Source of the DNA: a virus
Strand: one strand, 5' to 3'
IMG/VR virus record: IMGVR_UViG_3300045988_180190
DNA: 64,000 nucleotides
A program made the translations under genes and the position numbers. Under the pieces are notes generated by a model. The model did no database searches, had not been told where the DNA came from, and worked only from the letters and a program-made list of their open reading frames with translations. Shown here piece after piece: positions 7,620 through 28,839 of the stretch (its first letter is position 1; every line of letters begins with the position of its first letter).

Positions 7620-7638
7620 CTCATATTTTTAAAAATCG

Positions 7639-7722
7639 TACCCAAAGAGGGACTCGAACCCTCACGCTCATACGAGCATCAGATTTTAAGTCTGATGTGG
7701 CTACCTATTACACCATTTGGGC
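7639..7722 (-). tRNA. tRNA-Leu (anticodon UAA)
   Basis: Hand-folded cloverleaf. Acceptor GCCCAAA/TTTGGGT. Anticodon stem TCAGA/TCTGA with loop CTTAAAA. Long variable arm GCTC-GTAT-GAGC. T-arm GAGGG-TTCGAGT-CCCTC. Confidence 0.85.
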
Positions 7723-7735
7723 ATTAAAGTTAAAA

Positions 7736-7806
7736 TAGTTGCACCAGGACTTGAACCTAGACCAAAAGAACCAAAATCTTTTGTGCTGCCATTACACTAT
7801 GCAACT
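7736..7806 (-). tRNA. tRNA-Gln (anticodon UUG)
   Basis: Hand-folded cloverleaf. Acceptor AGTTGCA/TGCAACT. Anticodon stem AAAGA/TCTTT with loop TTTTGGT. T-arm CTAGG-TTCAAGT-CCTGG. Confidence 0.8.
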
Positions 7807-7816
7807 ATGGATTGAT

Positions 7817-8092: not shown

Positions 8093-8504
8093 AAGGTTTA
8101 AATTCTTTAAATTGGTTATAGTTTGTTGAGTATAGAATACGTTTAAAGTGAAACATATTTAATACTCGTTGGCAGTTTACACACGGTTTGGCGTTTGCCA
8201 GTAACCCATTGTTGTCTATCCTAATATTAACTAATGTTAATTTATGATAGTCGTTTCTAAATAAAATTTGTTTTATACAGGCAATCTCTGAATGTAAACC
8301 TATGGTATGTGTATACGCAATAGGTTTATATTCATTATACTTGCCAAAAATTTGGTAAGGATGCAACTGTGTATAATCGTTATACCCAATTGCTATTACC
8401 TTACTTCCTCTCAAAGCTACTGTGCAATGAAATGCCCTTCCTGTCTGTAACGCTTCCTTTGCTAGTTTAGCTTTTTTGACAAGCGTTCTTAGAATTGGTT
8501 TCAT
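8067..8504 (-). CDS. Cytidine/deoxycytidylate deaminase-family zinc enzyme (dCMP deaminase-like)
   Basis: 145 aa with the two zinc-ligand motifs of the CDA fold at the expected spacing: HSEIACI (H-x-E) and PCVNCQRV (PCxxC). Confidence 0.8.
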   Translation of the reverse strand: MKPILRTLVKKAKLAKEALQTGRAFHCTVALRGSKVIAIGYNDYTQLHPYQIFGKYNEYKPIAYTHTIGLHSEIACIKQILFRNDYHKLTLVNIRIDNNGLLANAKPCVNCQRVLNMFHFKRILYSTNYNQFKEFKPYEMDCCNL

Positions 8505-10665
8505 GCAAATATTGCTTTCTTACTTCAATAATACTATGGTTAGCGGCATAGTCTTGGCTTTTGGTTTTTAGCCAATTTACAAATAAAACTTCATCTTGGT
8601 CGATAAATGTTTGTTTTAAATTGTTTCTAGCGTAACCTTGCATTATACCTCTGAAACGTTTCCACTTTTTATAGAAATTGGTTTTAAACTTAAACCTAAA
8701 GTTGTTTGCATCCACAAACACAAAGCCTTCGTGTCTTAGTCTCTTTTCGTTTTCCAATTTCGTTAATTCCTTTTCCAAGCTACTCCAATTATCATAGGTC
8801 TTATACAATTCCTTATATGGCATACCCCAAGAATCAGCAAGCTTTACCAGCTCAGGATAAGGTACATACGTTTCAGAAAAATCATTGCTTATAATATCCA
8901 AGAGAACAATCTTTGGGACATCATATTCAATTATATGGGGATCATTCTTAGGATCAATGACTTCGAAAATTAGCGTTACATTATTTTCCTTTGCATACTG
9001 TAGTGCATTTTCACAGAATATATAGCTATAAAACAAAAGCTTAAACCAATCTGCGTGCTCTCCTTTATTTGTTGATTTTGAGGAAATAAATGGTTTTTGC
9101 TTTTCTTTATCCCAACTTACTAATCCCAAGAATCCATTTTCTTTTTTGTAAGCAGTTACAGGAAACACTAAGTTTTTGCTCAAAGCAGCTAATGAGGTCG
9201 TATTGTTCTCTTTGAGGTTAAAAAACTTCTCATAGCTTCTTGCTATGATTTCATCACCTCTGCAGAACAAGCCCCTAGCTTTTACACGCATTGTATCCCA
9301 GGCTTTTGACAGAAACACGTCTCTGCTAAACTTGTAGGATACTATGTCATCTTCAAGCTTCTGTTTTAGTATATGCTTATCATTGTTTAACGATTTAATT
9401 ATTTCATTATTAGATTCCGGGTCATTTAATTGCCTTACTGTAACTGGAGCGGGCTTATGCACAGGGTTTTCAAAACTAAGAATTCTCGTTTTGCATTCCC
9501 CACACACTTCTCTGAGTTCTAGCACTCGCAAGGGTTCTCCATATTCTACCGCTGAGTTCAAGTTAATAACTTGATCCTCTGCATTGGGAACAGTATGTTC
9601 AAGATTCCTATGCCCATGTGCCTGGCATATGAAATCTGGATATCTTGACTTCCAAGCTTCCGCTACTTGCGATACGTCCTCATACTTCCCGACTCCCTTT
9701 ATGTACTCTACAGTCGATAGCTTAAGACTCGGCAGCACAGGAATACCCCCATGGGTTACTAGCCAGGTTTTATCATGATAATTGAAAAACGCTAGTTGAC
9801 CTAGAGACCTGCAGAATTGCCTAATGTCAGATACATCTATAGATTTGATTTGTGGGAGCGTATTGTCCCTAAACTCACTAGATCTAATCTTCTCAAAATC
9901 TTTTGGATCTTTCGAAGAATAATACCTAAGCCAAGCTTCGTGATTGCCTTCCAGACACAATACGTTTTTATTTTTGGAAATCTCTATGAAAAATTCCAAG
10001 GTTTCCTTGTTTTGGATACCCCTATCTATGTAGTCTCCTACAAAGATATATTTATTGTTTTCACTGAAAGGATTTTCCTTGAAGAACGCTTTTATAGGTT
10101 CTACGCAACCATGTATATCTCCAAATATATAGATTTTTTCAGCACTGCTATAATCTATTGGACTGAACCTCGAAATCATATCCAATGCTGCTTCAGGAGA
10201 TACAATGTGATATGCAGACTTCACTTGGTTATTCTCCGAGTTAAATACCGCATACATTTTGCGGATAACATGCTCAGGAACTACTTTATATCCAGTTCTA
10301 CCCGCATTTCTTCTGATGCATTCCTCCTCGGATATGTTCGTAAAATCTACAACAAAGACTCTATACCTATATTTTTCGATTAGATGCTTGTAAGCATTAA
10401 GCAACTCCCGTTTATAATGGGTGGCACCAATGATCACCATGTCACCATTTGACATTCTAAGCTCTAGGGTTTCTTTTAGCAAAGCCCATACCTTACTGTC
10501 CATTCTCTGGCTGATTCCAAGTTCTCCCGATGTATTAAGCACGGGAGAAGACATCATTGTGCGGATATTATCAGCACAAAGCGTATATGGCTCCAGCTCA
10601 TTATTCTTTATCCAAGTTGATTTTCCAGAGCCAGGAGCTCCTCTTAGCAAAAACAATGTACGCAT
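8467..10665 (-). CDS. pnkp: Trifunctional RNA repair enzyme: polynucleotide kinase, metallophosphatase and ligase (bacterial Pnkp-like architecture)
   Basis: 732 aa. N-terminal P-loop kinase GAPGSGKST. Central PPP-type phosphoesterase motifs GDIHGC, GDYIDRG, GNHE, THGG, GH. C-terminal domain has a nucleotidyltransferase motif-I-like YKKENGFLG (KxxG). Confidence 0.75.
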   Translation of the reverse strand: MRTLFLLRGAPGSGKSTWIKNNELEPYTLCADNIRTMMSSPVLNTSGELGISQRMDSKVWALLKETLELRMSNGDMVIIGATHYKRELLNAYKHLIEKYRYRVFVVDFTNISEEECIRRNAGRTGYKVVPEHVIRKMYAVFNSENNQVKSAYHIVSPEAALDMISRFSPIDYSSAEKIYIFGDIHGCVEPIKAFFKENPFSENNKYIFVGDYIDRGIQNKETLEFFIEISKNKNVLCLEGNHEAWLRYYSSKDPKDFEKIRSSEFRDNTLPQIKSIDVSDIRQFCRSLGQLAFFNYHDKTWLVTHGGIPVLPSLKLSTVEYIKGVGKYEDVSQVAEAWKSRYPDFICQAHGHRNLEHTVPNAEDQVINLNSAVEYGEPLRVLELREVCGECKTRILSFENPVHKPAPVTVRQLNDPESNNEIIKSLNNDKHILKQKLEDDIVSYKFSRDVFLSKAWDTMRVKARGLFCRGDEIIARSYEKFFNLKENNTTSLAALSKNLVFPVTAYKKENGFLGLVSWDKEKQKPFISSKSTNKGEHADWFKLLFYSYIFCENALQYAKENNVTLIFEVIDPKNDPHIIEYDVPKIVLLDIISNDFSETYVPYPELVKLADSWGMPYKELYKTYDNWSSLEKELTKLENEKRLRHEGFVFVDANNFRFKFKTNFYKKWKRFRGIMQGYARNNLKQTFIDQDEVLFVNWLKTKSQDYAANHSIIEVRKQYLHETNSKNACQKS

Positions 10666-16164: not shown

Positions 16165-16237
16165 AGCCAGCTGTCGGGGTTGAACCGACAACCTTCGCTT
16201 TACAGGAGCGTTGCTCTACCAATTGAGCTAAGCTGGC
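16165..16237 (-). tRNA. tRNA-Thr (anticodon UGU), with an unusual C at position 33 in my fold
   Basis: Acceptor GCCAGCT/AGCTGGC. D-arm GCTC-AATTGGTA-GAGC. Anticodon loop CCTGTAA. T-arm GTCGG-TTCAACC-CCGAC. Confidence 0.7.
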
Positions 16238-16621
16238 GTTAAAGGGTTAACCCGCAGAGAAAACCGAAAACTGCGGGAGCAGCTTAGGGGACTGGCTGCC
16301 ACAGTCGTAGGAAAAAATAAATTGGGGATTTATTAGCTTATTAAAACATTAAAGTTTCTATCACCCTGAACCGCTTAAAGCGATCAGATGGTGTCCCCGA
16401 AAGCTACTTGCCTAACCTAATTACAAGCCCGTGGAAGTTGAGGGTTTTTGTGTGCAATTTCAGTCTTCATCCGAATTTGCCCTTGTTTATTGCATTTAAA
16501 CTAAATATTCAAATGCAACTATTTAGACTATCTCCACTTTCTCCGACTCTCACCCTGAAGATAGGTGGTTTCATCCCTCGGAACAAGGATTAGCGAAATG
16601 CTTGAAAATGAACTAAAATAA
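16238..16621 (-). ncRNA. Candidate structured non-coding RNA, class not identified
   Basis: 384 bp with no ORF of 60 aa or more on the gene strand. It lies exactly between two same-strand tRNAs. It is locally GC-enriched for this genome and contains several stems, for example CCCGCAG/CTGCGGG, GCAGC/GCTGC and CACCCTGA/TCAG-ATGGTG. Strand is assumed from the neighbours. Confidence 0.3.
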
Positions 16622-16696
16622 TCGAGTAGGAGGGATTTGAACCCCCAACCCCATGCTCCCAAAGCACGTGCGCTAGCCAGATTGCGCTACTACTCG
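16622..16696 (-). tRNA. tRNA-Pro (anticodon UGG)
   Basis: Acceptor CGAGTAG/CTACTCG. D-arm GCGC-AATCTGGCTA-GCGC. Anticodon stem CGTGC/GCATG with loop TTTGGGA. T-arm GGGGG-TTCAAAT-CCCTC. Confidence 0.85.
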
Positions 16697-16743
16697 TTAA
16701 AGAAACCCCGAACATTTGGGCATTACAAAGAGGCCTTCGGGGT
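16697..16743 (-). terminator. Possible terminator hairpin with a large loop
   Basis: On the minus strand, ACCCCGAA ... TTCGGGGT forms an 8-bp stem with a 23-nt loop, followed by TTCTTTAA. It lies downstream of the pentapeptide-repeat gene. Confidence 0.35.
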
Positions 16744-16772
16744 GTGTTATGAATCAATCAACACTATTGTAT

Positions 16773-17498
16773 TTATAATGTCAAAGCATTTTTATGCTTT
16801 TTATAGATTTTTTTCATATCTTTTAGAAAAGATACTGCTTTATCGTATTTACGTCGCACTATACTGCGTTTGTTAGGGTGCTTTATTTCAAGTTCAAACA
16901 TAAAGTCTTCTAAGGTTCCGGAGAAATTTTCATGCCAAATTATGTCCAAAGTAATATCGTACGTCAGCATTTCATTATCTTCCCCTAGACGATTTATACT
17001 TACAATGGTGTCGTCTATGTATGCACAACTTAGATTAGTATTCCTAAACTTTACGCTCTCCAAATTTACTCGTTGCAGTTTTGCATAACTTAAATCTGCA
17101 TAGGATAGTTCTGTATTTTCCATTACAGCTCCTTCCAGTGTTGCCCCATTTAATTGGGCTCCAAGTAAATCTGTTTGTTTTAGATTTGCACCTTTTAAGT
17201 TAACGTGACTTAAATTTGCGTAATTTAGATCTGCACCTCCTAAATCTGCCCCGCATAATATTGCATATTCTAAATTTGCATTGTAAAGATATGCTCCGCA
17301 CAGATTTGCATTTTCTAAGTTCGCATCACGTAAATCGGCATTATCCAGTTCAGCATAACTTAAATTAGCACCACGAAGATCAAGTCCCCTTAAGTCTGCA
17401 TAGCTTAAATTTGCGCATTGTCCCTTATTGGCATTTTCAACCCATTTTTCATGACGTTTGAGTATTTTACATAATTTCGTTCGAGTCATAACTCCCAT
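16773..17498 (-). CDS. Pentapeptide-repeat protein (canonical A[D/N]LxX type)
   Basis: 241 aa. About 130 central residues form an uninterrupted 5-residue periodicity (ANLSYADLRGLDLRGANLSYAELDNADLRDANLENANLCGAYLYNANLEYAILCGADLGGADLNYANLSHVNLKGANLKQTDL...). Confidence 0.85.
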   Translation of the reverse strand: MGVMTRTKLCKILKRHEKWVENANKGQCANLSYADLRGLDLRGANLSYAELDNADLRDANLENANLCGAYLYNANLEYAILCGADLGGADLNYANLSHVNLKGANLKQTDLLGAQLNGATLEGAVMENTELSYADLSYAKLQRVNLESVKFRNTNLSCAYIDDTIVSINRLGEDNEMLTYDITLDIIWHENFSGTLEDFMFELEIKHPNKRSIVRRKYDKAVSFLKDMKKIYKKHKNALTL

Positions 17499-18021
17499 AT
17501 ATTTTTTCCCAGGTATAAGTTACAACTGGACCAAATTCTTCTTTGATTGGTCCACGGCATGTCTTAACTGGAGAAACAACGCTCCAAGCTTTCAACATAG
17601 TAGGGTTTGATGAATCTTCATCAAAAGGCTTTGTAATATGATACCACCTATCGTTTAATCGCAGTTTCCCCAAGTATATTGCAAGCTCAAACTTACCTGT
17701 GGTAGTATTGTTATCTACCTTGCATGGTTTATTGAATTCAAGTTTTTCGTCTGCAACAAAAAGTTCATCTGTGATTGCGTTGACAACTTTGTCCAAATAA
17801 GCATCGCGCTCGGAGTTGTTGCTAAAATCTTTTGACACAATTTGATTATCAGCAGCCCAGTAATTGCCCCTTAGGTAAATCCCCCAATCTTCAAGATAAG
17901 GTGAAGCTTTAATTCTCACAAACCCTGTTTCTTTAAGATGGGGCAAACCGGTTTGTTCTACTATTTTCATGGCTAAGGTTTTATCTGTTAGCCAAAAAGC
18001 CAATTTTAATTTTTTGCTCAT
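17467..18021 (-). CDS. MSKKLK...TWEEK family paralog 1 (long form, stop lost; reads into the pentapeptide gene start)
   Basis: 184 aa. Contains MSKKLKLAFW..., SERDAYLDKVVNAITDELF and VTYTWEK, then a 13-aa extension that overlaps the next gene by 32 nt. Confidence 0.7.
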   Translation of the reverse strand: MSKKLKLAFWLTDKTLAMKIVEQTGLPHLKETGFVRIKASPYLEDWGIYLRGNYWAADNQIVSKDFSNNSERDAYLDKVVNAITDELFVADEKLEFNKPCKVDNNTTTGKFELAIYLGKLRLNDRWYHITKPFDEDSSNPTMLKAWSVVSPVKTCRGPIKEEFGPVVTYTWEKIYGSYDSNEIM

Positions 18022-18040
18022 GTTTATTTTCCTTTCTTAG

Positions 18041-18373
18041 TTAAGCCCTCCAAATGAGGGTCAACGTTTCCCCACTTCGTATTTCACGGGGTCTTTCCTT
18101 GTTAAATAGCTCCTCGGAAATGGCACGTGTATAATGAGTTAAAGCGCGATCGCGCTCTTCATTATCCTCATAAAAATAGGACGGGATTGCCCGAAATGTT
18201 CGGGTATCTTGCTCCCACCCCCAGAGACCAATTTTATACCTCTCTAAAAATTGTCCGTTTGTTATACGGACATTTCCAAAGTCCTTAAAATGAGGCAAGC
18301 CCCGTTGTTCAAGTACCTGGAATGCAAGTGCTTCATTTGCTATCCAGAATTTTACTTTTAATTTTTTACTCAT
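18041..18373 (-). CDS. MSKKLK family paralog 2 (short form)
   Basis: 110 aa. Contains MSKKLKVKFW..., EERDRALTHYTRAISEELF and ends LTLIWRA. Confidence 0.7.
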   Translation of the reverse strand: MSKKLKVKFWIANEALAFQVLEQRGLPHFKDFGNVRITNGQFLERYKIGLWGWEQDTRTFRAIPSYFYEDNEERDRALTHYTRAISEELFNKERPREIRSGETLTLIWRA

Positions 18374-18451
18374 GTTGCATTTCCTATCAATTGTTTATAA
18401 TCTTTGTGGTTATACATAGGAGTAACCTTACGGCACCCTCTATGAAGTTTC

Positions 18452-18787
18452 TTATTTCTCTTCCCAAGTATATATTGTTACGGGACCATCAACTTTTACT
18501 GTAGGTTGACTTGTGAATAATTCGCTAGAAATTTGTTCAACAATTTTCTTTAAGTCCCTATCTCTTGATTCTTTACTTGTATAAGTTATGGAGTCCACGT
18601 CGTGAGCTACCCATTTACTTTCTGGTAAAAGTAGGCGAAAGTCGTCATAGGTAAATACAGTTAGACAATCCCCACCTACACGAATATACCCATTTTCTTT
18701 GCTTTTACGGAATCCTACGCTTTCCACTAGTTTGATCACTAGTGTTATGTCATCAGCCTTCCAAAAGGCTAGTTTCAGCTTTTTCAT
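18452..18787 (-). CDS. MSKKLK family paralog 3 (short form)
   Basis: 111 aa. Contains MKKLKLAFW..., ESRDRDLKKIVEQISSELF and ends IYTWEEK. Confidence 0.7.
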   Translation of the reverse strand: MKKLKLAFWKADDITLVIKLVESVGFRKSKENGYIRVGGDCLTVFTYDDFRLLLPESKWVAHDVDSITYTSKESRDRDLKKIVEQISSELFTSQPTVKVDGPVTIYTWEEK

Positions 18788-18986
18788 ACTTCTTCCTTTC
18801 GGTTAAAAGCCATTTTTTAAATTCTTCATTATCGTCCGCTTCTGGAATGTCATATATTCCATTATCTTCCCACTCTCCGAAAAACTGCATCTTGCCTTGT
18901 GGCTTCTCCTTTATCCAAAGTTTAAAGGGCTGTTTGATTTTAGCGATTCGGTGGTAGTGCCATGCTTCGTAGCGATTCAGTTTCAC
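18753..18986 (-). CDS. Hypothetical small protein with a putative GTG start coupled to paralog 4's stop
   Basis: GGAGGAGAA-GTGA: a GTG overlaps the TGA of the upstream gene and is preceded by its WEEK-encoded SD. The product is 77 aa (VKLNRYEAWHYHRIAKIKQPFKLWIKEK...). Its 3' end overlaps the start of paralog 3. Confidence 0.35.
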   Translation of the reverse strand: MKLNRYEAWHYHRIAKIKQPFKLWIKEKPQGKMQFFGEWEDNGIYDIPEADDNEEFKKWLLTERKKYEKAETSLLEG

Positions 18987-19486
18987 TTCTCCTCCCAAGT
19001 GTAGGTGACTACGTTCTCCCACTCATCAATAAGAGGCTTTGTTTGTTTCGCTATCGGGCGGGCGTATGTACAAGTACACCAACTCAGTGTTCCATTCTCT
19101 ATAATGAATCTCATTTCATAACGGTCGGGCAATATAGCTAAGAGTCTATATTTGCGCCAAGATACACCATCATCACTAACCTCACACATCTCGCCGATGT
19201 TAAGCTCATCTTTGCCCGTGAACAGCTCGTCCGTGATTGAGTTGACTACTTTCTGCAAATACTCGTCTCGCTCGGCGTTAGTTTCAAAGTGTATTGGGGT
19301 TAATTTAAGATTTGCATAGTGAAGATAACCTCTAAGCCAGACGACATTGTCAGAAATCAATGCCGGCGAATCATTTATCCTAACATAACCGTCCCCTTTT
19401 TCTTTCGGCAACCCCTCTTGCTCCAATATTTGCATTGCCAGTGCTCGTTCTGCTTTCCAAAACTGAATTTTCAATTTTTTACTCAT
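18983..19486 (-). CDS. MSKKLK...TWEEK family paralog 4 (long form)
   Basis: 167 aa. Contains MSKKLKIQFWKAERALAMQILEQEGLPK, NAERDEYLQKVVNSITDELF and GEMCEV...ARPI, and ends VTYTWEEK. Confidence 0.75.
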   Translation of the reverse strand: MSKKLKIQFWKAERALAMQILEQEGLPKEKGDGYVRINDSPALISDNVVWLRGYLHYANLKLTPIHFETNAERDEYLQKVVNSITDELFTGKDELNIGEMCEVSDDGVSWRKYRLLAILPDRYEMRFIIENGTLSWCTCTYARPIAKQTKPLIDEWENVVTYTWEEK

Positions 19487-19488
19487 AA

Positions 19489-19653
19489 TTATTTCTCCTC
19501 CTTTTGTTTAAGTTCTTCGAGTTCCGTCTCCAAATCAGTAATCTTCTCTCTTTGACATTCGCAAGGAGATACATATATCGTATTGCCATGAACAGAAGCA
19601 TCTAATTTAGCTCCGCATTCATCGCATTGAACTTCGATTTCAATTTCAACCAT
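19489..19653 (-). CDS. Small zinc-ribbon-like protein inside the paralog array (not in the ORF track, 54 aa)
   Basis: My translation is MVEIEIEVQCDECGAKLDASVHGNTIYVSPCECQREKITDLETELEELKQKEEK. The ATG follows paralog 5's stop by 1 nt. Its own 3' end, AAGGAGGAGAAATAATTATG, supplies the SD for paralog 4. Confidence 0.5.
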   Translation of the reverse strand: MVEIEIEVQCDECGAKLDASVHGNTIYVSPCECQREKITDLETELEELKQKEEK

Positions 19654-19654
19654 A

Positions 19655-20164
19655 CTATTTCTCCTCCCAAGTACAGGTGACTATATTCCCAGATTCCTCG
19701 ATAGTAGGCTCTGTGTGCTTGACAATAGGGCGGGCGCAAGTCCAAGAAGAGTACTCAGCAGGGCAATCCGCCCATTCAACAATAAATCGGTTTTTATATT
19801 GCTCTGGAAGAATCTCCAGAAGTTTTCTTTTCCGCCACCGTTCGCACTCATCGTCTCTCACCTCGCACATCTCACCGATTTTAAGCTTCCCTTCGCCCGT
19901 GAAAAGCTCGTCCGTGATGGCGGAGACAACCTTCTGTAAATACTCGTCGCGCTCGGCGTTGCTATTAAAACATCTGCCTTGAGGATGATAATTATACTTA
20001 TCTGCTTCTCCGTGAAGAAATATAATGTCTCCTTCAAACGCTGGTTGTATTACAATTCTAACGCGTCCATCAATCTTTCGTTTCGGCAAACCCTCTTGCT
20101 CCAATATTTGCATGGCAAGAGCCTTTTCAGCCTTCCAAAACTGAATTTTCAATTTTTTACTCAT
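19655..20164 (-). CDS. MSKKLK...TWEEK family paralog 5 (long form)
   Basis: I use the MSKKLK start at 20164; the track ORF begins 18 nt upstream. The N-terminal 27 aa are near-identical to paralog 4. Contains NAERDEYLQKVVSAITDELF and ends VTCTWEEK. Confidence 0.75.
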   Translation of the reverse strand: MSKKLKIQFWKAEKALAMQILEQEGLPKRKIDGRVRIVIQPAFEGDIIFLHGEADKYNYHPQGRCFNSNAERDEYLQKVVSAITDELFTGEGKLKIGEMCEVRDDECERWRKRKLLEILPEQYKNRFIVEWADCPAEYSSWTCARPIVKHTEPTIEESGNIVTCTWEEK

Positions 20165-20166
20165 GT

Positions 20167-20658
20167 TTATTTCTCCTCCCAAGTGTATATATCTTCGTTG
20201 ATTTTCGGTTCTATCCGACGCTCAATCGGACGGGCATACATAAAACCCGTCCAATCATTGTCCTGACCGTTTTCCATGATATAACGGTTTGCAAATCTTT
20301 TAGGCAAAATTGTTATAATTTTTCTTTTTTCCCATTCATCATTCTTGTAATTTCGCACTTCACACAACTCCCCTGATTTCAGCATTCCTTCATTGTTTTT
20401 TCCAAACTGTTCTTCGCTTATCCAGTGGATAACGTTTTTAAGGTATTCGTCGCGCTCGGCGTTTGTATCAAAATGTTTTACAGGAATGCTCAAATTGCCG
20501 CGTAAATCTTCATCACAAAGATAAATACGGTCGCAACAAAGTTCGGGGAATCCCGTACCTACATGTTCAGAATCTCGAAAGCTCCCCTCTTGCCCCAATA
20601 TTTGCATTACGAGGGCTCTTTCAAATTTTACGAATCGGATTTTTAGTTTTTTAGTCAT
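20167..20658 (-). CDS. MSKKLK...TWEEK family paralog 6 (long form, most divergent)
   Basis: 163 aa. Contains MTKKLKIRFVKFERALVMQILGQEG, NAERDEYLKNVIHWISEEQF and GELCEV...ARPI, and ends IYTWEEK. Confidence 0.7.
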   Translation of the reverse strand: MTKKLKIRFVKFERALVMQILGQEGSFRDSEHVGTGFPELCCDRIYLCDEDLRGNLSIPVKHFDTNAERDEYLKNVIHWISEEQFGKNNEGMLKSGELCEVRNYKNDEWEKRKIITILPKRFANRYIMENGQDNDWTGFMYARPIERRIEPKINEDIYTWEEK

Positions 20659-20680
20659 AGTTATTTTTACCTTTTTCTTT

Positions 20681-20740
20681 TTATATTTATCTTCTTCTTT
20701 TTATATTTATCTTCTTCTTTTTATATTTATCTTCTTCTCT
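20681..20740. repeat. Tandem direct repeat, 3 x 20 bp
   Basis: TTATATTTATCTTCTTCTTT occurs three times, with the third copy ending ...CTCT. It spans the 3' end of ORF 20687..20884 and lies 22 nt upstream of the paralog 6 ATG on the gene strand. Confidence 0.9.
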
Positions 20741-20884
20741 TTGTTCTTTTATTTTTAAAGCAGCACGATAAATAGCATCGCACCTAGGATTATTTTCTCT
20801 TAGCGACTCGTATGTCTCAATAGTTGAGTCTAAGTGCTTATCGTTTAGCGACATTAAATCTCTTACGATTTCCCAAGCTTCCAT
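20687..20884 (-). CDS. Hypothetical small protein with a Lys/Arg tail encoded by the 20-bp repeats
   Basis: 65 aa. The C-terminus REEDKYKKKKINIKRRR comes from three 20-bp units read in three different frames. Confidence 0.45.
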   Translation of the reverse strand: MEAWEIVRDLMSLNDKHLDSTIETYESLRENNPRCDAIYRAALKIKEQREEDKYKKKKINIKRRR

Positions 20885-20899
20885 TTGTGATGCTCGTTA

Positions 20900-21079
20900 C
20901 TATACATCTTTGTTCTCGGATGCTTTTGGGTAATTTAATACCTCTATGTCTCTTTTGCTGAGTGAGCGTCTATAGTCTATTATTATTGGACGCACCGCAT
21001 ACAGAGTTAATGCCATCCCAAGAAAAGCTCCTGCTATGGCTATTAAAACAGCTATTACACAATAAATTGCGATATTCAT
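20900..21079 (-). CDS. Small single-pass membrane protein (59 aa, below the track threshold)
   Basis: My translation is MNIAIYCVIAVLIAIAGAFLGMALTLYAVRPIIIDYRRSLSKRDIEVLNYPKASENKDV. It fills an otherwise empty gap, and its ATG lies directly after the upstream stop. Confidence 0.45.
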   Translation of the reverse strand: MNIAIYCVIAVLIAIAGAFLGMALTLYAVRPIIIDYRRSLSKRDIEVLNYPKASENKDV

Positions 21080-21080
21080 C

Positions 21081-21314
21081 TTAGTTGACTTCCTTTCTTA
21101 TTTCTTTAGTAATTCTTCTTTTTAAAATTGCTCTACGGCGATGAGAGCCTCGCTTTTGAGCATTGCGACGAGACCTATTGCACCTACCGGTCTCGTCCCA
21201 ATATCCTAATGGCTTTCCATTATCACGCACGTCTGCACAAGAAAAGGCGCCGCCATCACTTTTTAATAATTTAGCATGTTTTGCCTTAGGCGTATCTTTG
21301 CTTGTTCTACTCAT
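21081..21314 (-). CDS. Hypothetical very basic small protein
   Basis: 77 aa, Arg/Lys-rich (RSRRNAQKRGSHRRRAILKRR). Confidence 0.45.
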   Translation of the reverse strand: MSRTSKDTPKAKHAKLLKSDGGAFSCADVRDNGKPLGYWDETGRCNRSRRNAQKRGSHRRRAILKRRITKEIRKEVN

Positions 21315-21642
21315 GACATAGATTTTTTGCAGCCTCTTCGGTTAGCTTGATTGACATAATCTGCAGAGATTTCGCCTCATTTTTCCAAATGTAAAGCTTT
21401 CGATTTATCTCTTTTAAGAAATCTCTCAGCTCTATATTCTTTTTCCTCAACCGAATGGCTTTACCTTTATACTTATCGTTTTCAGCTTGTAGCTCTTGAA
21501 TGCGACTTTTGAGTGATTCCTCAGTTGGAGTAAAATATTCACCAACTAAGCAATCTGTTTTGGTGCATTTTGCTTCGCAATATTTCGAGTTATAAAATGC
21601 ACAGTTCTCACAATTAATATCTATACCATACTCATCTTTCAT
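21307..21642 (-). CDS. Cys-rich N-terminal domain plus coiled-coil protein, paralog of 22168..22620
   Basis: 111 aa. MKDEYGIDINCENCAFYNSKYCEAKCTKTDC...FTPTEESLKSRIQELQAEN parallels MKDKNGINIECQNCEAFEYCKDSSAYEQC...FSPSKEAYEARIQELQELV. Confidence 0.6.
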   Translation of the reverse strand: MKDEYGIDINCENCAFYNSKYCEAKCTKTDCLVGEYFTPTEESLKSRIQELQAENDKYKGKAIRLRKKNIELRDFLKEINRKLYIWKNEAKSLQIMSIKLTEEAAKNLCHE

Positions 21643-21857
21643 TTTATAACGTCTCCAAGTTTTTCGATAATAATAAGATTAGGTGCAACAGACGCTTTGA
21701 TAAGGGCTGGAATTACAGACATAATTAAGTGTGCCAATGCAAATGCGAGTCCAAAAATGGCTCCCCCAAGCATTACAATAAACACTGCACGTTCGTCGTT
21801 TTTATCAAACCACCACATGCGTCCACCACAACAAACATCTAGTATGGGTTTTTGCAT
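21639..21857 (-). pseudogene. Remnant of a SAM-dependent methyltransferase N-terminus fused to a hydrophobic tail
   Basis: From the SD-preceded ATG (GAGGAGGATTAATG), MQKPILDVCCGGRMWWFDKNDERAVF matches a methyltransferase motif-I region. It then continues as IVMLGGAIFGLAFALAHLIMSVIPALI and stops after 72 aa. No catalytic motif is present. Confidence 0.4.
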
Positions 21858-22168
21858 TAATCCTCCTCTTCTTTTAAATCTTTTATAATATCCATGCATT
21901 TAATAGACAGCCTTAATAACGAGCATCTATATTCATCATCTCGTTTAACAGAGTTTAGCTTAGCTTCAACGATATCTCTTAGGAGTTCCATCTCGCTAAG
22001 ACTAAATTGCTCTTGCCTTTTGTTCCAAGCTTCTTCTGCGTCATCCTCGTTAAGGAAGGGTCCTGATAACGCACCGCAATTTACACAAGCTGTGTGATAT
22101 ATACCGATAGGCAATTGTTTAGTATATATGCGGTTACTTCCACAGAATGGGCAACGCTTTGTTTTCAT
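21857..22168 (-). CDS. lar: Lar-family restriction-alleviation-like protein
   Basis: 103 aa. CPFCGS...(19 aa)...CVNCGALSGP...AEEAWNKR is the pattern I associate with the Lar family: a zinc ribbon followed by A..aWN.R. Confidence 0.6.
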   Translation of the reverse strand: MKTKRCPFCGSNRIYTKQLPIGIYHTACVNCGALSGPFLNEDDAEEAWNKRQEQFSLSEMELLRDIVEAKLNSVKRDDEYRCSLLRLSIKCMDIIKDLKEEED

Positions 22169-22620
22169 TAGTTATTCTCCTCGCTTTCTGCCTGTTTAAG
22201 CCGTTCTAAAACGTCTTTATTATCGTGCATCGTGCGGTCGAGAAGCTCCATTGAAAACTCCTCCACTCTTCTTTGAAGCACCTCATTGTGTGCTTTCAGC
22301 TCTTTTACTTCTTCCCTCAGTCTGTCCGCCTCCTGCGCTTCCGCGCGTTCGGACTCTTGGACAACGTATAGCTCCTTTTGAAGCTCTGCAATTCGCTTGT
22401 GCAACAATGAGGTTTCATGCCTGCGCTCTTGTTCCTTCTTCGTTAGCTTTTGCTTTAAAGTTGATACAAGTTCTTGCAACTCTTGAATGCGGGCTTCATA
22501 TGCTTCCTTGCTCGGAGAAAATGCCCTATTTTGGCATTGTTCATATGCAGAACTATCTTTGCAATATTCAAATGCTTCACAATTTTGGCATTCAATATTG
22601 ATTCCGTTCTTGTCTTTCAT
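22168..22620 (-). CDS. Cys-rich N-terminal domain plus long coiled-coil protein, paralog of 21307..21642
   Basis: The start is moved to MKDKNG (22620) to match the paralog. The C-terminal ~100 aa are heptad-rich and charged. Confidence 0.6.
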   Translation of the reverse strand: MKDKNGINIECQNCEAFEYCKDSSAYEQCQNRAFSPSKEAYEARIQELQELVSTLKQKLTKKEQERRHETSLLHKRIAELQKELYVVQESERAEAQEADRLREEVKELKAHNEVLQRRVEEFSMELLDRTMHDNKDVLERLKQAESEENN

Positions 22621-22864: not shown

Positions 22865-23266
22865 TTATTTAGATTTTTGTTGTTCAATATAATTTTTAAT
22901 ATTTTCTTCCGAAGTGCTTCCGACCGTCCCGTAAAAAGTACCCTTACTCCACAATCCTGTACCCCAAAACTTTTTCTGTTTTAGGGAGGGGAAGGCAAAA
23001 AATAACCTCACGGCACTAATTGATTTTAAGGTTTGTGCTATGGTTACGGGAGCTACTGTATGAGGTGCCTCTATTAAAATATGTACATGATCGGGCATAA
23101 TTTCTAAAGCTCCTATTTTCCAACCATAAGCTATAGCTGTTTCATTTAAAATGAGCTTTAAAACTACAGATTCTTTTTCTTTTAAAACAGGGTGTCTAAA
23201 TTTTGTACACCACACAATATGATATGCCAGTTGACAAATAGAATTATTTTGTTGACTTTTTTCCAT
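22865..23266 (-). CDS. tnpA: IS200/IS605 Y1 (HUH) transposase TnpA
   Basis: 133 aa with the HUH motif PDHVHILIE and C-terminal catalytic Tyr context IKNYIEQQ. Confidence 0.85.
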   Translation of the reverse strand: MEKSQQNNSICQLAYHIVWCTKFRHPVLKEKESVVLKLILNETAIAYGWKIGALEIMPDHVHILIEAPHTVAPVTIAQTLKSISAVRLFFAFPSLKQKKFWGTGLWSKGTFYGTVGSTSEENIKNYIEQQKSK

Positions 23267-23287: not shown

Positions 23288-24385
23288 ATGATTAAAACAA
23301 TGTCAATTAAAGCACCCTTAAACCCTGAAGATTATTTTCTGTGGTTTAATCAGTGTGCTGATATGTTTAATCAATATGTTGATTGGGCGTTTAAAGTTAA
23401 ATCTTATAATAAAAACAAAGCTCATAAGGAACTTTATCAAAAATTTCGTTGTGATTATCCACAAATTCCTAGTGCACTTGTCCAATGTGTTAGAGACATG
23501 GCTCTAGAATCTGTAAAAAGGGATAAATTTAAATCAAAACCCAAGAAAAAGAATAATTCCAGCTTAAGGCTAAATAAGTGTCTAATAAACTTAAAAGGAA
23601 ATTCTATTTCTGTAATTCACCCTAACAAACGAATTAAATTTAATTTTGATTATGCAGATTATTTTTCTAACTATAAAAATGCCAAATTTCGTAGCGCAAC
23701 TTTACAGTATAAAAAGCTAAGTCATACAATCGTTTTAAACTTACAATTCGAGTTTCCGGACACTCCCTTGAAAGCAGAAGGGGAAATAATAGGTATAGAT
23801 AGAGGTATTTACAACCTTGTGTCTTGTTCTAATGGACTGCAAATTAAAGGTAGTCAGATAAGAGCAAGACAACGAAAAGATTTGTTTAATAAAAGAAATA
23901 TTCAATCAAAAGGAACAAAATCTTCCAAACGTAAGCTTAAAAAGCTAAGCGGAAGATATGCTCGGTTCAGTGCGAATATTAATCACTGCATAAGTAAACA
24001 AATTGTTTCGATTCCTAATCTAAAAACCATTGTATTTGAAAATTTAAAAAACATCGGTAAAAAGCGTAAAGGAAAAAAGCTTAACAAATGGATTCATTCC
24101 TGGTCTTTTTACCAACTTCAAATATTCACGGAATACAAGGCTTTAGAAAAAGGAATCGAAGTAAAATATGTTGACCCAAGGTATACTTCGCAAAAGTGTA
24201 GTGCTTGTGGTTTCACGGACAAGAATAACCGGCATAAACATAAATTTGTTTGCAGACATTGCGGACATACTTGCGATGCCGATTTAAATGCCGCTGTAAA
24301 CATTAAACAAAACTATATTCTCTCTTTAACTAATAAAGAGCAGGCTGCTGTCAACCAGCCTATTGTAGCAAGCAGCAATGCTTAG
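23288..24385 (+). CDS. tnpB: TnpB RNA-guided nuclease (OrfB/IS605 family)
   Basis: 365 aa. RuvC-I IGIDRGI and RuvC-II VFENLKN. Zinc finger CSACG...CRHCG. RuvC-III DADLNAAVNI. Confidence 0.85.
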   Translation: MIKTMSIKAPLNPEDYFLWFNQCADMFNQYVDWAFKVKSYNKNKAHKELYQKFRCDYPQIPSALVQCVRDMALESVKRDKFKSKPKKKNNSSLRLNKCLINLKGNSISVIHPNKRIKFNFDYADYFSNYKNAKFRSATLQYKKLSHTIVLNLQFEFPDTPLKAEGEIIGIDRGIYNLVSCSNGLQIKGSQIRARQRKDLFNKRNIQSKGTKSSKRKLKKLSGRYARFSANINHCISKQIVSIPNLKTIVFENLKNIGKKRKGKKLNKWIHSWSFYQLQIFTEYKALEKGIEVKYVDPRYTSQKCSACGFTDKNNRHKHKFVCRHCGHTCDADLNAAVNIKQNYILSLTNKEQAAVNQPIVASSNA

Positions 24386-26570: not shown

Positions 26571-27455
26571 TTATTTTTTCTGAAATACTGATTTATTGCT
26601 CTTCAGCTTTCTGTCGAAATCTGCCTTGGATATGCCGGTTATCTCTTCGAATATTTTATAGTCAAAGTTTGGCAACTCAAGTGTTAGAATCACGTCTTGA
26701 ACCGTAGCCCTTGAAAATTCGCGTTTAAACATCTCCTTTTCAGGATGCTTTACCCTCAAAATCCAAAGAGGCCAAGGAATACTACGGGCATCTACGTCTG
26801 TTTCTTTGTTAAAGAAATAACATTTAGGGGATATGGTATTGAAACAACCACAGTTACGGTCCCCAATGTTAAAGGAACCAGTATTGTAGTTACCTATGTT
26901 CTTATCCCCCGTATTTTCGTTGCCGATGTTATATGCTCCACTGTTTCTGTACCCCACGTTAGATACTCCAGTATTATGATCGCCTATATTACCGTGACCG
27001 GTGTTGTAATTTCCTTTATTGCGGGTTCCAGTGTTAAGATTTCCCACATTTGGTCCCCGACTATTTTGGTATCCAATATTGTAATTGGGTCGCGGGGGTA
27101 GGTTATCTAAAGCACGATCTTCATAATACTTTATCCTACGCATGCAGGTTTTAGTAATTTCTTTGACCAGCCTTATCGTTTGACATAATATTTCAGGCGA
27201 GGTTCCCGCCACGTGTTCAATGCAAGTTTTCCCCTTAACGTCTACTTCGAATATTCTCACCTCCTCAAGTATTTCACCATACAAGGCAAAAATCCAGTTG
27301 GTAGAAACTTTATAGTGTGAGTCTTCAATTTTTGCAGCCGGAATCTTGGGAGTCCACTTTCCAGGCTTGTTACCTTGTGGCAAATAATCCGTGTAGTCAA
27401 ACCCGGAATTAATTACTTGATTATCTTCTACTCTAAGAACTATGTAGTTTTTCAT
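26571..27455 (-). CDS. Beta-helix-type repeat protein with non-canonical pentapeptide repeats (x-N-[ITV]-G-x)
   Basis: About 14 consecutive 5-residue units (PNVGN LNTGT RNKGN YNTGH GNIGD HNTGV SNVGY RNSGA YNIGN ENTGD KNIGN YNTGS FNIGD RNCGC). I moved the start to MKNYIVL (27455) because the upstream 22 codons are the translated IS left-end hairpin. Confidence 0.6.
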   Translation of the reverse strand: MKNYIVLRVEDNQVINSGFDYTDYLPQGNKPGKWTPKIPAAKIEDSHYKVSTNWIFALYGEILEEVRIFEVDVKGKTCIEHVAGTSPEILCQTIRLVKEITKTCMRRIKYYEDRALDNLPPRPNYNIGYQNSRGPNVGNLNTGTRNKGNYNTGHGNIGDHNTGVSNVGYRNSGAYNIGNENTGDKNIGNYNTGSFNIGDRNCGCFNTISPKCYFFNKETDVDARSIPWPLWILRVKHPEKEMFKREFSRATVQDVILTLELPNFDYKIFEEITGISKADFDRKLKSNKSVFQKK

Positions 27456-27482
27456 ATTATATCCTTTCTTTATTAGGAGTGT

Positions 27483-28839
27483 CAGAAAACTCACCAGCTC
27501 GTCTGGTGAGCTGAATGGCATCTTTGGTTATTTTGTTTTTTGTTCTTGACATAAATTTAAGTTAGTTGAAAATTTACTTAAACAATGCCTAAAAAGACAA
27601 TATTTAAATCTTATAAATTTCGTCTTTATCCTGAAGATAAAGACAAAGCTTTTTTATCTCAACATTTTGGGCATTGTAGGTTTGTATATAATTACTTCCT
27701 AAAAGAAAAGCAGAATTTTTATCTTAAAAACAAGAAAACTTTAAATTATAACAATTGTTCAGCCGCGTTAACTACTCTTAAAAAACAAAAAGAATACTCG
27801 TGGTTAAAAGACGTGAACTCCCAAAGCTTGCAACAATCTTTAAAGCATTTGGAAACTGCATTTGGAAAGTTCTTTAAAAAAGAAACTAAATTTCCCGTTT
27901 ATAAAAATAAACATTCTTTTAATTCTTTTTCGATACCTCAAAATATTCGCATTGTTAAAAATCGAATTTTTATTCCCAAATTTAAACAAGGCATTCGATT
28001 TGTTAAACATAGGGAATTGAAAGGTAAGATTCTTAGCGCCACAATATCCCTAAACCCGTCGGGAAGATATTTCGTATCTATTTTAACATCACAAGAAATT
28101 GACGTTAAGAAATCTGTTAAAAATCCAAAAATTATTGGGCTGGATTTGGGGATAAAAGACTTCCTTATAACTTCTGACGGATCCAGATTTTCTAATTTTA
28201 AGTTTAAAAGACAGTATCAAACTAAGCTATCTAAGCTTCAAAAATATCTAAGTCGCAAACCCCAACCCAGTAATTCCAAAATAAAACTAAAACAAAAGAT
28301 TGCCAAACTTCACGAGAAGATAGCCAATTCCCGTGAGTATCTGCAACATTGTATTAGTAAACAACTGGTTGAAGAAAACGATGTTATATGTTTGGAAACA
28401 TTATCAGTTAAAAATATGATGAAAAACCACAAGCTCGCTTATGCTATAAGCGATAGTGCATGGACATCTTTTGTTTCCAAACTGGAATATAAATCGAAAT
28501 GGAAGGGAAAAGATATAGTTAAAATAGACCATTTCTTTCCTTCGTCCAAAACTTGCAATAGTTGCGGGTATATTAACCAAAAACTAACGCTTAAAGACAG
28601 GTCTTGGATTTGTCCTAAATGCGGCAAGCTTTTAGATCGAGATATAAACGCGGCTAAAAATATTTTAACCCGAGGATTGACCATAATCCTATCGTCCGCA
28701 ACAGACGATTACAGACATGGAGCTGAAATAAGACTTGGCTTGGATAATTTATCCAAGCCAAGCATAAGCAATGAAGTGTTTAAAATTGAATAGCTTTAAT
28801 GCTTTTCAAGCTCACTAGCTTGTCTAGTGAGTAGTTGAC
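27483..28839 (+). mobile_element. IS200/IS605-family element carrying tnpB only (IS1341-like, non-autonomous)
   Basis: The left-end hairpin CTCACCAG-CTCGT-CTGGTGAG (27490..27510) is followed by CTGAATGGC. The right-end hairpin CTCACTAG-CTTGT-CTAGTGAG is followed by TAGTTGAC, ending at 28839. Orientation matches the first element. Confidence 0.8.
27585..28793 (+). CDS. tnpB: TnpB RNA-guided nuclease
   Basis: 402 aa. RuvC-I IGLDLGI and RuvC-II CLETLSVKNM. Zinc finger CNSCG...CPKCG. RuvC-III DRDINAAKNI. Confidence 0.85.
   Translation: MPKKTIFKSYKFRLYPEDKDKAFLSQHFGHCRFVYNYFLKEKQNFYLKNKKTLNYNNCSAALTTLKKQKEYSWLKDVNSQSLQQSLKHLETAFGKFFKKETKFPVYKNKHSFNSFSIPQNIRIVKNRIFIPKFKQGIRFVKHRELKGKILSATISLNPSGRYFVSILTSQEIDVKKSVKNPKIIGLDLGIKDFLITSDGSRFSNFKFKRQYQTKLSKLQKYLSRKPQPSNSKIKLKQKIAKLHEKIANSREYLQHCISKQLVEENDVICLETLSVKNMMKNHKLAYAISDSAWTSFVSKLEYKSKWKGKDIVKIDHFFPSSKTCNSCGYINQKLTLKDRSWICPKCGKLLDRDINAAKNILTRGLTIILSSATDDYRHGAEIRLGLDNLSKPSISNEVFKIE

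Follow-up and report, generated by a model that had tools for sequence, protein, structure and literature searches.

Positions 16,773 to 20,658 of a 64,000-nt stretch of viral DNA (IMG/VR record IMGVR_UViG_3300045988_180190; the whole stretch is referred to as the window) carry a tandem array of six paralogous genes, which we named P1 to P6. Our comparisons show that the array represents a multigene family, accessory and able to expand, whose small phage proteins are built from two modules. It is a previously unannotated, moderately large phage protein family, arranged in a tandem array that is variable among related genomes. By sequence match, the window is part of a 169,893-bp human-gut metagenome scaffold. 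As to function, we tentatively lean towards the possibility that the paralogs are accessory binding proteins having a conserved scaffold and variable loops, and that expansion and reshuffling fit the array to a varying set of partners, of which host proteins, in defence or otherwise, are the likeliest.

From open reading frames (ORFs) and alignment, the six paralogs and the genes interleaved with them all lie on the minus strand between 20658 and 17467, and the pentapeptide-repeat gene then continues down to 16773. The genes of this unit, in their 5′ to 3′ order, are as follows.

P1, 20167-20658, minus strand: long paralog of 163 amino acids (aa) with a TWEEK end; the fastest-evolving member.
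P2, 19655-20164, minus strand: long paralog of 169 aa, with its ATG at 20164.
Zn54, 19489-19653, minus strand: 54-aa zinc-ribbon-like gene (CxxC...CxC) within the array, with a KEEK end; its start is 1 nt past the P2 stop.
P3, 18983-19486, minus strand: long paralog of 167 aa, of which the full-length model was made.
77-aa ORF, 18753-18986, minus strand: its GTG start overlaps the TGA of P3 (GTGA) and its 3′ end overlaps the P4 start by 35 nt.
P4, 18452-18787, minus strand: short paralog of 111 aa, N-domain plus TWEEK tail.
P5, 18041-18373, minus strand: short paralog of 110 aa with an IWRA end.
P6, 17467-18021, minus strand: 184 aa; the C-module is divergent, and a conserved tail of 12 aa overlaps the start of the pentapeptide gene.
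Pentapeptide-repeat gene, 16773-17498, minus strand: 241 aa, including a non-repeat C-terminal region of ~70 aa; the final gene of the unit.

The original prediction, made from the letters of the window, had described six consecutive related genes, and alignment, BLASTP and a hidden Markov model (HMM) all bear this out. The six proteins have 17 invariant alignment columns and pairwise identities of 28–61%, and even the most distant pairs are still significant in BLASTP (E values of 4e-8 and 1e-10). An HMM built from the six paralogs found no further copy in the 64-kb window. The N-terminus M(S/T)KKLK..FW and the block ..ERD.YL....I(S/T).E(L/Q)F are both as described, the TWEEK-stop attributed to four paralogs is found in P1–P4, and the embedded 54-aa zinc-ribbon ORF ending in KEEK is present at 19489-19653. 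The division into four long and two short forms also holds: P1, P2, P3 and P6 (163–184 aa) have an extra C-terminal module of ~70 aa, which is divergent in P6, and P4 and P5 (110–111 aa) are without it. All six frames are intact. At the DNA level, direct repeats occur at the 5′ ends of the paralogs, at the ERD block and at the C-terminal junction; a repeat search of 16700-21200 returned paralogy repeats only, no search for a reverse transcriptase (of a diversity-generating retroelement) having been made.

We compared the array with the same site in related phages, which are gut-phage contigs of ~165–175 kb (labelled L001, L002 and so on). The original prediction had proposed a survey of copy number in related genomes, and this survey found the array to be variable and not core, with 1 to 7 copies. 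The individual counts at this site are 7, 6, 6 (of a different composition), 5, 3 or 1. Extra dispersed family copies reside elsewhere in the same genomes, and other lineages have 2–5 copies in the stretches examined.

The comparison with L002, whose flanks are 98–99% identical to the window at the nucleotide level, gave the following values for amino acid identity, the synonymous substitution rate (dS) and the ratio of the nonsynonymous to the synonymous rate (dN/dS).

P1: 73% aa identity, dN/dS 0.71.
P2 (positional ortholog): 68.5% aa identity, dS 0.64.
P3: 70.5% aa identity, dS 1.0.
Zn54, P4, P5, P6 and the pentapeptide gene: 94–100% aa identity, dN/dS 0–0.33.

The array genes other than P1–P3 are 87–100% conserved between relatives. 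P4 orthologs are 89–95% and P6 orthologs 89–96% identical across genomes, the relatives of Zn54 are 95–98% identical (dN/dS 0.07–0.48), and P5 has 97–100% identical counterparts in L002 and L019 and is missing from L001, L004, L003, L030 and L032. P1 behaves differently: its orthologs in near-identical genomes are 72–75% identical, with dN/dS of 0.60–0.75 in four comparisons, and the changes are concentrated in the loops 26–66 and in the C-module. By region, dN/dS of P1 is 0.22 in the hairpin, 0.77 in loops 26–66, 0.21 in the helix and 0.52 in the C-module, and for the C-module it reaches 1.18 in the comparison of the window with L002. P3 orthologs are 61–72% identical at a dS of 0.7–2.

The dS of the flanking genes is mostly ~0.03–0.1 (up to 0.29). 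Against most of these genes, the dS of 0.64 of P2 points to allele replacement. Together with that of P3, it points to an exchange of old alleles rather than to acceleration in place. The original prediction had proposed a recent duplication, and this is not upheld: the paralogs are 28–61% identical to one another, yet P4, P5 and P6 each have orthologs elsewhere that are 89–100% identical, and therefore the duplications are old and predate those genomes. It had also described its paralogs 4 and 5, which are P3 and P2 in our numbering, as nearly identical over their first ~80 nt. This was correct for the first 30 nt (97% identity) and overstated for the next 60 nt (77%). The identity is 82% over 125 nt, and further on it is 33–43% in the loop region and 80–87% in the helix block. 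Gene conversion between P2 and P3 was considered and rejected, as the identical first ~45 nt can be explained by the conserved N-terminal peptide and the ribosome-binding region, and synonymous differences resume directly afterwards.

The orthologs of the array genes evolve under purifying selection, with dN/dS of 0.07–0.75; as judged from these ratios, the paralogs are shown to be real genes under selection. These values also bear on the explanation that the duplicates are in decay or have no function, or that they are selfish cassettes spread by unequal recombination. The unstable copy number would fit such an origin, and the shared junction sequences (TWEEK-stop-ATG-SKKLK) would favour unequal crossing-over. 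However, the six intact frames and the purifying selection on their orthologs speak against it, as do the scaffold residues, which are invariant across 50 diverse homologs, and the persistence of the family in distant phage lineages. We regard this explanation as very improbable.

Next to the sequence comparisons stand the predicted structures. The AlphaFold2 model of full-length P3 has a mean predicted local distance difference test score (pLDDT) of 82.2, and that of the N-domain alone has a pLDDT of 90.4 and a predicted template modelling (TM) score of 0.80. In this confident model, the N-domain (~95 aa) folds into a beta-hairpin with four short strands and, at its C-terminal end, a helix of 20 residues. 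A Foldseek search of the PDB with this model returned no neighbour (best E value 0.9, TM score ≤0.32), so that the N-domain is possibly a new fold. The C-module (~70 aa) is predicted to form a small beta-barrel of five strands. Its sole structural neighbours in Foldseek are of the Tudor/SH3 type, with E values of 0.03–1 (best 0.035) and 6–22% sequence identity; isolated Tudor domains match it with a probability of 0.96–0.97 and a target-normalised TM score of 0.63 over ~55 residues (e.g. 3qii, 0.97). Unlike in established Tudor, SH3-like or KOW barrels, no Pfam match to any of these three families was found for the C-module. The models thus suggest, weakly, a resemblance of the C-module to Tudor/SH3-type barrels as a fold class only, and not membership or function. 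A search of BFVD with the full-length P3 model returned uncharacterised viral proteins only.

The barrel brings in another explanation, which we consider unlikely, namely that the paralogs serve the phage's own nucleic-acid transactions as small adaptors or regulators. The barrel would bind DNA, RNA, a polymerase or a repair protein, and the copies would serve different modules, such as transcription timing, recombination and repair, or tRNA repair. The Tudor/SH3-like fold class does include nucleic-acid binders and RNA-polymerase binders (KOW domains, the RNA-polymerase-interacting domain of CarD/TRCF), and the strong conservation of P4, P5 and P6 is in line with a role of this kind. The positions of some family members in the relatives keep it alive as well: one is directly upstream of the gene of an SbcC-like ATPase, and in some relatives one is just upstream of the Pnkp/RNA-ligase gene, with one small ORF in between. 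However, the gain and loss of whole paralogs between near-identical genomes, giving 1 to 7 copies, would be unusual for core regulators, and so would the dN/dS of ~0.7 of P1. The proteins are near-neutral to mildly acidic and not basic (isoelectric point, pI, 5.2–9.3), and no DNA-binding motif was detected in Pfam and NCBIfam scans.

The family is not confined to the window and its close relatives. A profile search found at least 879 proteins, with no Pfam domain or functional name among the matches listed, and an exhaustive search, in a library that carries no annotation, gave 290 clusters at 50% identity. The hits examined came from human-gut metagenomes, uncultured phages and two gut Verrucomicrobiota genomes. 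Among the length variants are N-domains and C-modules that stand alone, an N-domain doubled in tandem, forms with N-terminal helical extensions, and a fusion with a membrane protein; in ten longer variants, Pfam revealed no informative partner domain. The paralogs, Zn54 and the 77-aa ORF gave no family match in Pfam, PHROGs, NCBIfam or PADLOC, except for one weak match of Zn54 to PHROG 4875 (E value 7e-4, function unknown), and a sequence profile search of the PDB gave chance-level matches only (E values ≥0.25). In accordance with the original prediction, the family could not be placed in a named group: there was no confident match in these libraries, in PDB sequences or by Foldseek, and none to a characterised or housekeeping family. 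The literature search found no full-text mention of the family, or of pentapeptide proteins as phage anti-defence factors.

Cultured phages offered no relatives either. A megablast search of GenBank phages with the 16–22 kb region matched a tRNA only, tblastn with P3 found no family member in cultured-phage records, and the terminase is at most ~33% identical to that of any cultured phage. In a genome scan, the only genomes with the family were two assemblies of gut Puniceicoccaceae (Verrucomicrobiota; L050 and L051), which have a distant short form; the one in Puniceicoccaceae bacterium Marseille-Q1082 (L051, 8001-8282) is 93 aa long. Its neighbours are two ParB_N proteins, a DUF2786/DUF7168 protein and a PriCT_2/AAA_25 primase. 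We take the combination of ParB_N, DUF2786 and a primase to suggest the early region of a mobile element, and this region of the Puniceicoccaceae genome looks like an integrated mobile element or a prophage.

The surroundings of the array are also informative. The window encodes the terminase, an SbcC-like protein, a Pnkp/RNA-ligase fusion, four tRNAs and IS605-type insertions. The fusion (732 aa, 8467-10665, minus strand) has AAA_33 kinase, metallophosphatase and T4-type RNA-ligase domains and, from this domain content, looks like a tRNA-repair enzyme. The tRNA genes (Leu, Gln, Thr and Pro) are at 7638-7807 and 16165-16696, and tRNAs were all that an Rfam search found. The array is the end of a run of small genes, two of which are relevant here.

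59-aa single-pass membrane protein, 20900-21079, minus strand: upstream of the array.
Lar-like restriction-alleviation gene, 21857-22168, minus strand: precomputed match to PF14354.

Of the anti-restriction genes mentioned in the original prediction, this Lar-like gene, ~1.2 kb upstream of the array, is a candidate; its TIGR03655 score is 38.3 bits against a cut-off of 39.6 bits. Some relatives have a membrane-anchored paralog, in which an additional family member is joined in frame to a homolog of the 59-aa membrane protein. One such protein, P0139 (243 aa), consists of a transmembrane segment, a linker and the family domains, like the ORFs of 245–249 aa in L003 (7249-7995) and L019 (2789-3523).

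We favour the view of the paralogs as variable binding proteins because of the variation in copy number, the fast-evolving loops, the accessory context next to the Lar-like gene, and the finding that all members named or examined belong to phages or mobile elements. The Lar-like gene, the tRNA-repair-type Pnkp/RNA-ligase gene and the phage tRNAs in the same variable region are a context that we take as fitting, and we count the membrane-anchored fusion variant in its favour as well. The conserved scaffold (hairpin, helix and barrel core) would display the variable loops, and every copy would bind its own partner, which itself changes fast. This partner would most probably be a host protein, for instance a component of defence or abortive infection. 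The phage would neutralise or redirect this partner early in infection, and copy gain, copy loss and allele swapping would adapt the repertoire to the hosts of the local population. The zinc-ribbon, 77-aa and pentapeptide proteins would be co-expressed accessory genes and not obligatory partners. From the sequence we infer that the array may have a host-takeover or counter-defence function, as originally predicted.

Several observations weigh against this view. The gene-wide dN/dS is below 1, and relaxed constraint or recombination of old alleles could have left a pattern like this one. For P2 and P3, the high dS speaks for recombination over positive selection. Half of the array (P4, P5 and P6) is strongly conserved, unlike in a pure arms-race family. 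The members located upstream of the SbcC-like and Pnkp/ligase genes equally fit a role in phage DNA/RNA metabolism. Finally, small beta-barrels are a generic fold, and the structural matches found are weak. A bolder version of the same view holds that the paralogs are a structurally new class of 'variable-loop' binding proteins, with a fold-novel N-domain with or without the barrel. Large gut phages would multiply and shuffle them into arrays that serve as a modular repertoire of inhibitors, in which each copy disarms a different host defence or toxin, and membrane-tethered and stand-alone versions would extend its reach. This version we regard as doubtful.

The membrane-anchored variant and the heterogeneous set of small tandem paralogs also recall immunity genes. 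The array could be an immunity-like or exclusion repertoire against competitors, in which each copy neutralises a different toxin or keeps out a different superinfecting phage or mobile element. Tandem paralogous immunity genes (such as the SUKH and Imm families) make up the poly-immunity loci of polymorphic toxin systems, and the array resembles these loci in its heterogeneous small paralogs, binding-type character, and variable copy number and surface loops. The superinfection-exclusion proteins of phages frequently have a membrane anchor (Imm and Sp of T4), and a homolog is found in the apparent integrated element of a Puniceicoccaceae genome. In contrast to poly-immunity loci, the array is in a lytic-type phage genome of ~170 kb, its proteins have no sequence or fold relation to known immunity families, and no toxin gene or domain was found beside it or in the annotated neighbours on the window contig and its relatives, as judged from precomputed Pfam matches, which are not an exhaustive search for remote homology. 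Most members are also without a membrane segment. This explanation differs from the counter-defence reading in the identity of the target alone, and we think it quite unlikely.

The gene at the end of the array encodes a true pentapeptide-repeat protein, as had been predicted: PF00805 matches it in four stretches (E value 1.7e-37, 127 bits against the Pfam cut-off of 20.2 bits). The accompanying idea, that this protein acts as a DNA mimic and that the array together with it forms a topoisomerase-directed complex, in the manner of Qnr and MfpA, did not fare well, and we hold it to be highly unlikely. The confirmed repeats and the 32-nt overlap of P6 with the pentapeptide gene, which is conserved in several genomes, are in its favour. 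However, unlike Qnr, MfpA and AlbG, the protein stays far below every curated NCBIfam threshold for Qnr and MfpA (48 against 240 bits for Qnr, 42.9 against 360 bits for MfpA, and far below for all Qnr sub-models). It has the extra non-repeat C-terminal region, and as a whole it is not notably acidic (pI 6.2, net charge −2). The gene is 94–98% conserved where present, yet it is absent after an intact P6 ortholog in L001, where it is evidently dispensable, and arrays without a pentapeptide gene exist in the relatives. These comparisons leave an obligatory link between the pentapeptide protein and the array unsupported. A second, unrelated pentapeptide-repeat gene, of a different type (PF01469, Pentapeptide_2), is present at 26571-27521 (minus strand), ~9 kb from the first, and this too counts against the idea.

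The original prediction had further held that the last paralog lost its stop codon. In every P6 ortholog seen, the 12-residue extension (..TWEKIYGSYDSNEIM; ..KIYG(S/N)Y..EEI(M/I/V)) and the 32-nt overlap are retained, and the extension persists even in L001 without the pentapeptide gene. The overlap is thus, on this comparison, an old arrangement and not a recent loss of the stop. The overlapping region (17467-17520) also contains an A6 run (TGGGAAAAAATATATGGG), at which a +1 shift would fuse the two proteins. Such a fusion by frameshifting or slippage was not retained, as no more than 7 open codons precede the ATG in the pentapeptide frame and L001 has a broken A run; it stays speculative.

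We also looked at how the genes of the unit are joined to each other. The junctions are as follows.

P1 to P2: gap of 2 nt.
P2 to Zn54: gap of 1 nt.
Zn54 to P3: gap of 2 nt.
P3 to the 77-aa ORF: overlap of 4 nt (GTGA, 18986-18983).
77-aa ORF to P4: overlap of 35 nt.
P4 to P5: gap of 78 nt.
P5 to P6: gap of 19 nt.
P6 to the pentapeptide gene: overlap of 32 nt.

Apart from the P4–P5 and P5–P6 gaps, which are exceptions to the pattern of overlaps or spacing by a few nucleotides, this tight arrangement is consistent with one coupled operon. All the junction sequences quoted in the original prediction are present: GGGAGGAGAAATAAACATG at 20180-20162, GGGAGGAGAAATAGTATG at 19668-19651, AAGGAGGAGAAATAATTATG before P3, and GTGA at 18986-18983. 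GGAGG-type sites precede P2, Zn54, P3 and probably also the 77-aa ORF, and such a site is often within the last codons of the upstream gene; the Shine-Dalgarno (SD)-like GGGAGGAG of P2, for example, sits in the last codons of P1. The motif encoded in the C-termini of the paralogs is therefore real, as claimed, but it is not special to them. The gene before Lar likewise shows this placement of an SD-like site within an upstream C-terminus, and the arrangement is common in this genome. Only ~27% of the window genes have a strong SD-like site, compared with 6.5% in a within-gene control.

GAG is used at 25 of the 31 junctions with an adjacent start and at 1 of the 6 without (Fisher p = 0.005), the genome-wide share of GAG being 32%, and taken at face value this codon choice agrees with selection for GGAGG. 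This GAG/GAA codon test of selection on the SD site is confounded because the non-adjacent cases share ancestry, all of them being P4 orthologs; GAA is also found in two P4 orthologs that do have an adjacent start. At the protein level, TWE is conserved throughout the family, and the following E-K is particular to the arrayed subfamily. From these sequences, we read the SD sites in the C-termini as ordinary translational coupling that shaped a tail, with no special mechanism. The GTG-started ORF that overlaps a TGA was also correctly described; the GTG itself is specific to this genome, and the relatives have an ATG at the same overlapping position (AAATGAAGCTGAAT, giving ATGA). The dN/dS of this 77-aa ORF is 0.08–0.23 at a dS of 0.38–0.52, and therefore the gene is real and under purifying selection.

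Two non-coding elements accompany the unit.

Conserved non-coding motif, 18415-18451, minus strand: ~37 nt right after the P4 stop, GAAACTYCATAG.GGGTG.CGTAAGGT.AC.
Candidate terminator hairpin followed by UUUCUUU, 16698-16743, minus strand: between the pentapeptide stop and tRNA-Pro.

The core of the first, GGGTG.CGTAAGGT, does not vary among 7 loci, including those with a different downstream gene, and inspection by eye of the alignment of these 7 loci revealed no convincing covarying hairpin. The second may be the terminator of the unit; its minimum free energy is −18.1 kcal/mol, with a z-score of −1.8 against shuffled sequences, and it was not called by the consensus scan. A promoter scan found no more sigma-70-like sites than in shuffled sequence.

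A few further features were observed upstream of the array. Immediately upstream of P1, a 20-nt unit (TTATATTTATCTTCTTCTTT, plus strand) is repeated 4.1 times with 93% match (20661-20742), and it overlaps the 3′ end of a 65-aa ORF (20687-20884) that is missing from several relatives. A second pair of paralogs, at 21307-21642 and 22168-22620 (BLASTP E value 9e-11, 28% identity), shares a Cys-rich motif at the N-terminus (GI.I.C.NC..), after which comes a coiled-coil-like region. The accessory region also contains IS200/IS605-type insertions at 23288-24385 (plus strand), 22865-23266 (minus strand) and 27585-28793 (plus strand), with two TnpB/Cas12f-like genes and one Y1 transposase; the matches of TnpB were to metagenome proteins only and gave no pointer to the host.

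The array belongs among the variable accessory gene clusters of large phages. Accessory early regions of this kind include the internal proteins and non-essential early genes of T4, the host-takeover module of SPO1, and anti-CRISPR and anti-defence clusters. Like them, the array is a run of small, co-oriented and packed genes of unknown function with variable content, situated by a Lar-like gene and with some fast-evolving members. Unlike them, it has one unannotated family expanded to six tandem copies of two length classes, and in Pfam, PHROGs, NCBIfam and PADLOC no member matches a characterised takeover or anti-defence protein.

Should the paralogs work in phage DNA/RNA metabolism, the gain would mainly be one of annotation for viral dark matter. 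If they are host-directed inhibitors, they would constitute a new counter-defence or takeover family of at least 879 proteins in 290 clusters, from abundant uncultured phages of the human gut, built on an N-terminal fold without a solved counterpart. The near-identical genomes that differ mainly in the content of the array provide a natural experiment, in which array variants can be paired with the defence repertoires of hosts. If the array is indeed a modular repertoire of inhibitors, its composition would predict the range of host strains.

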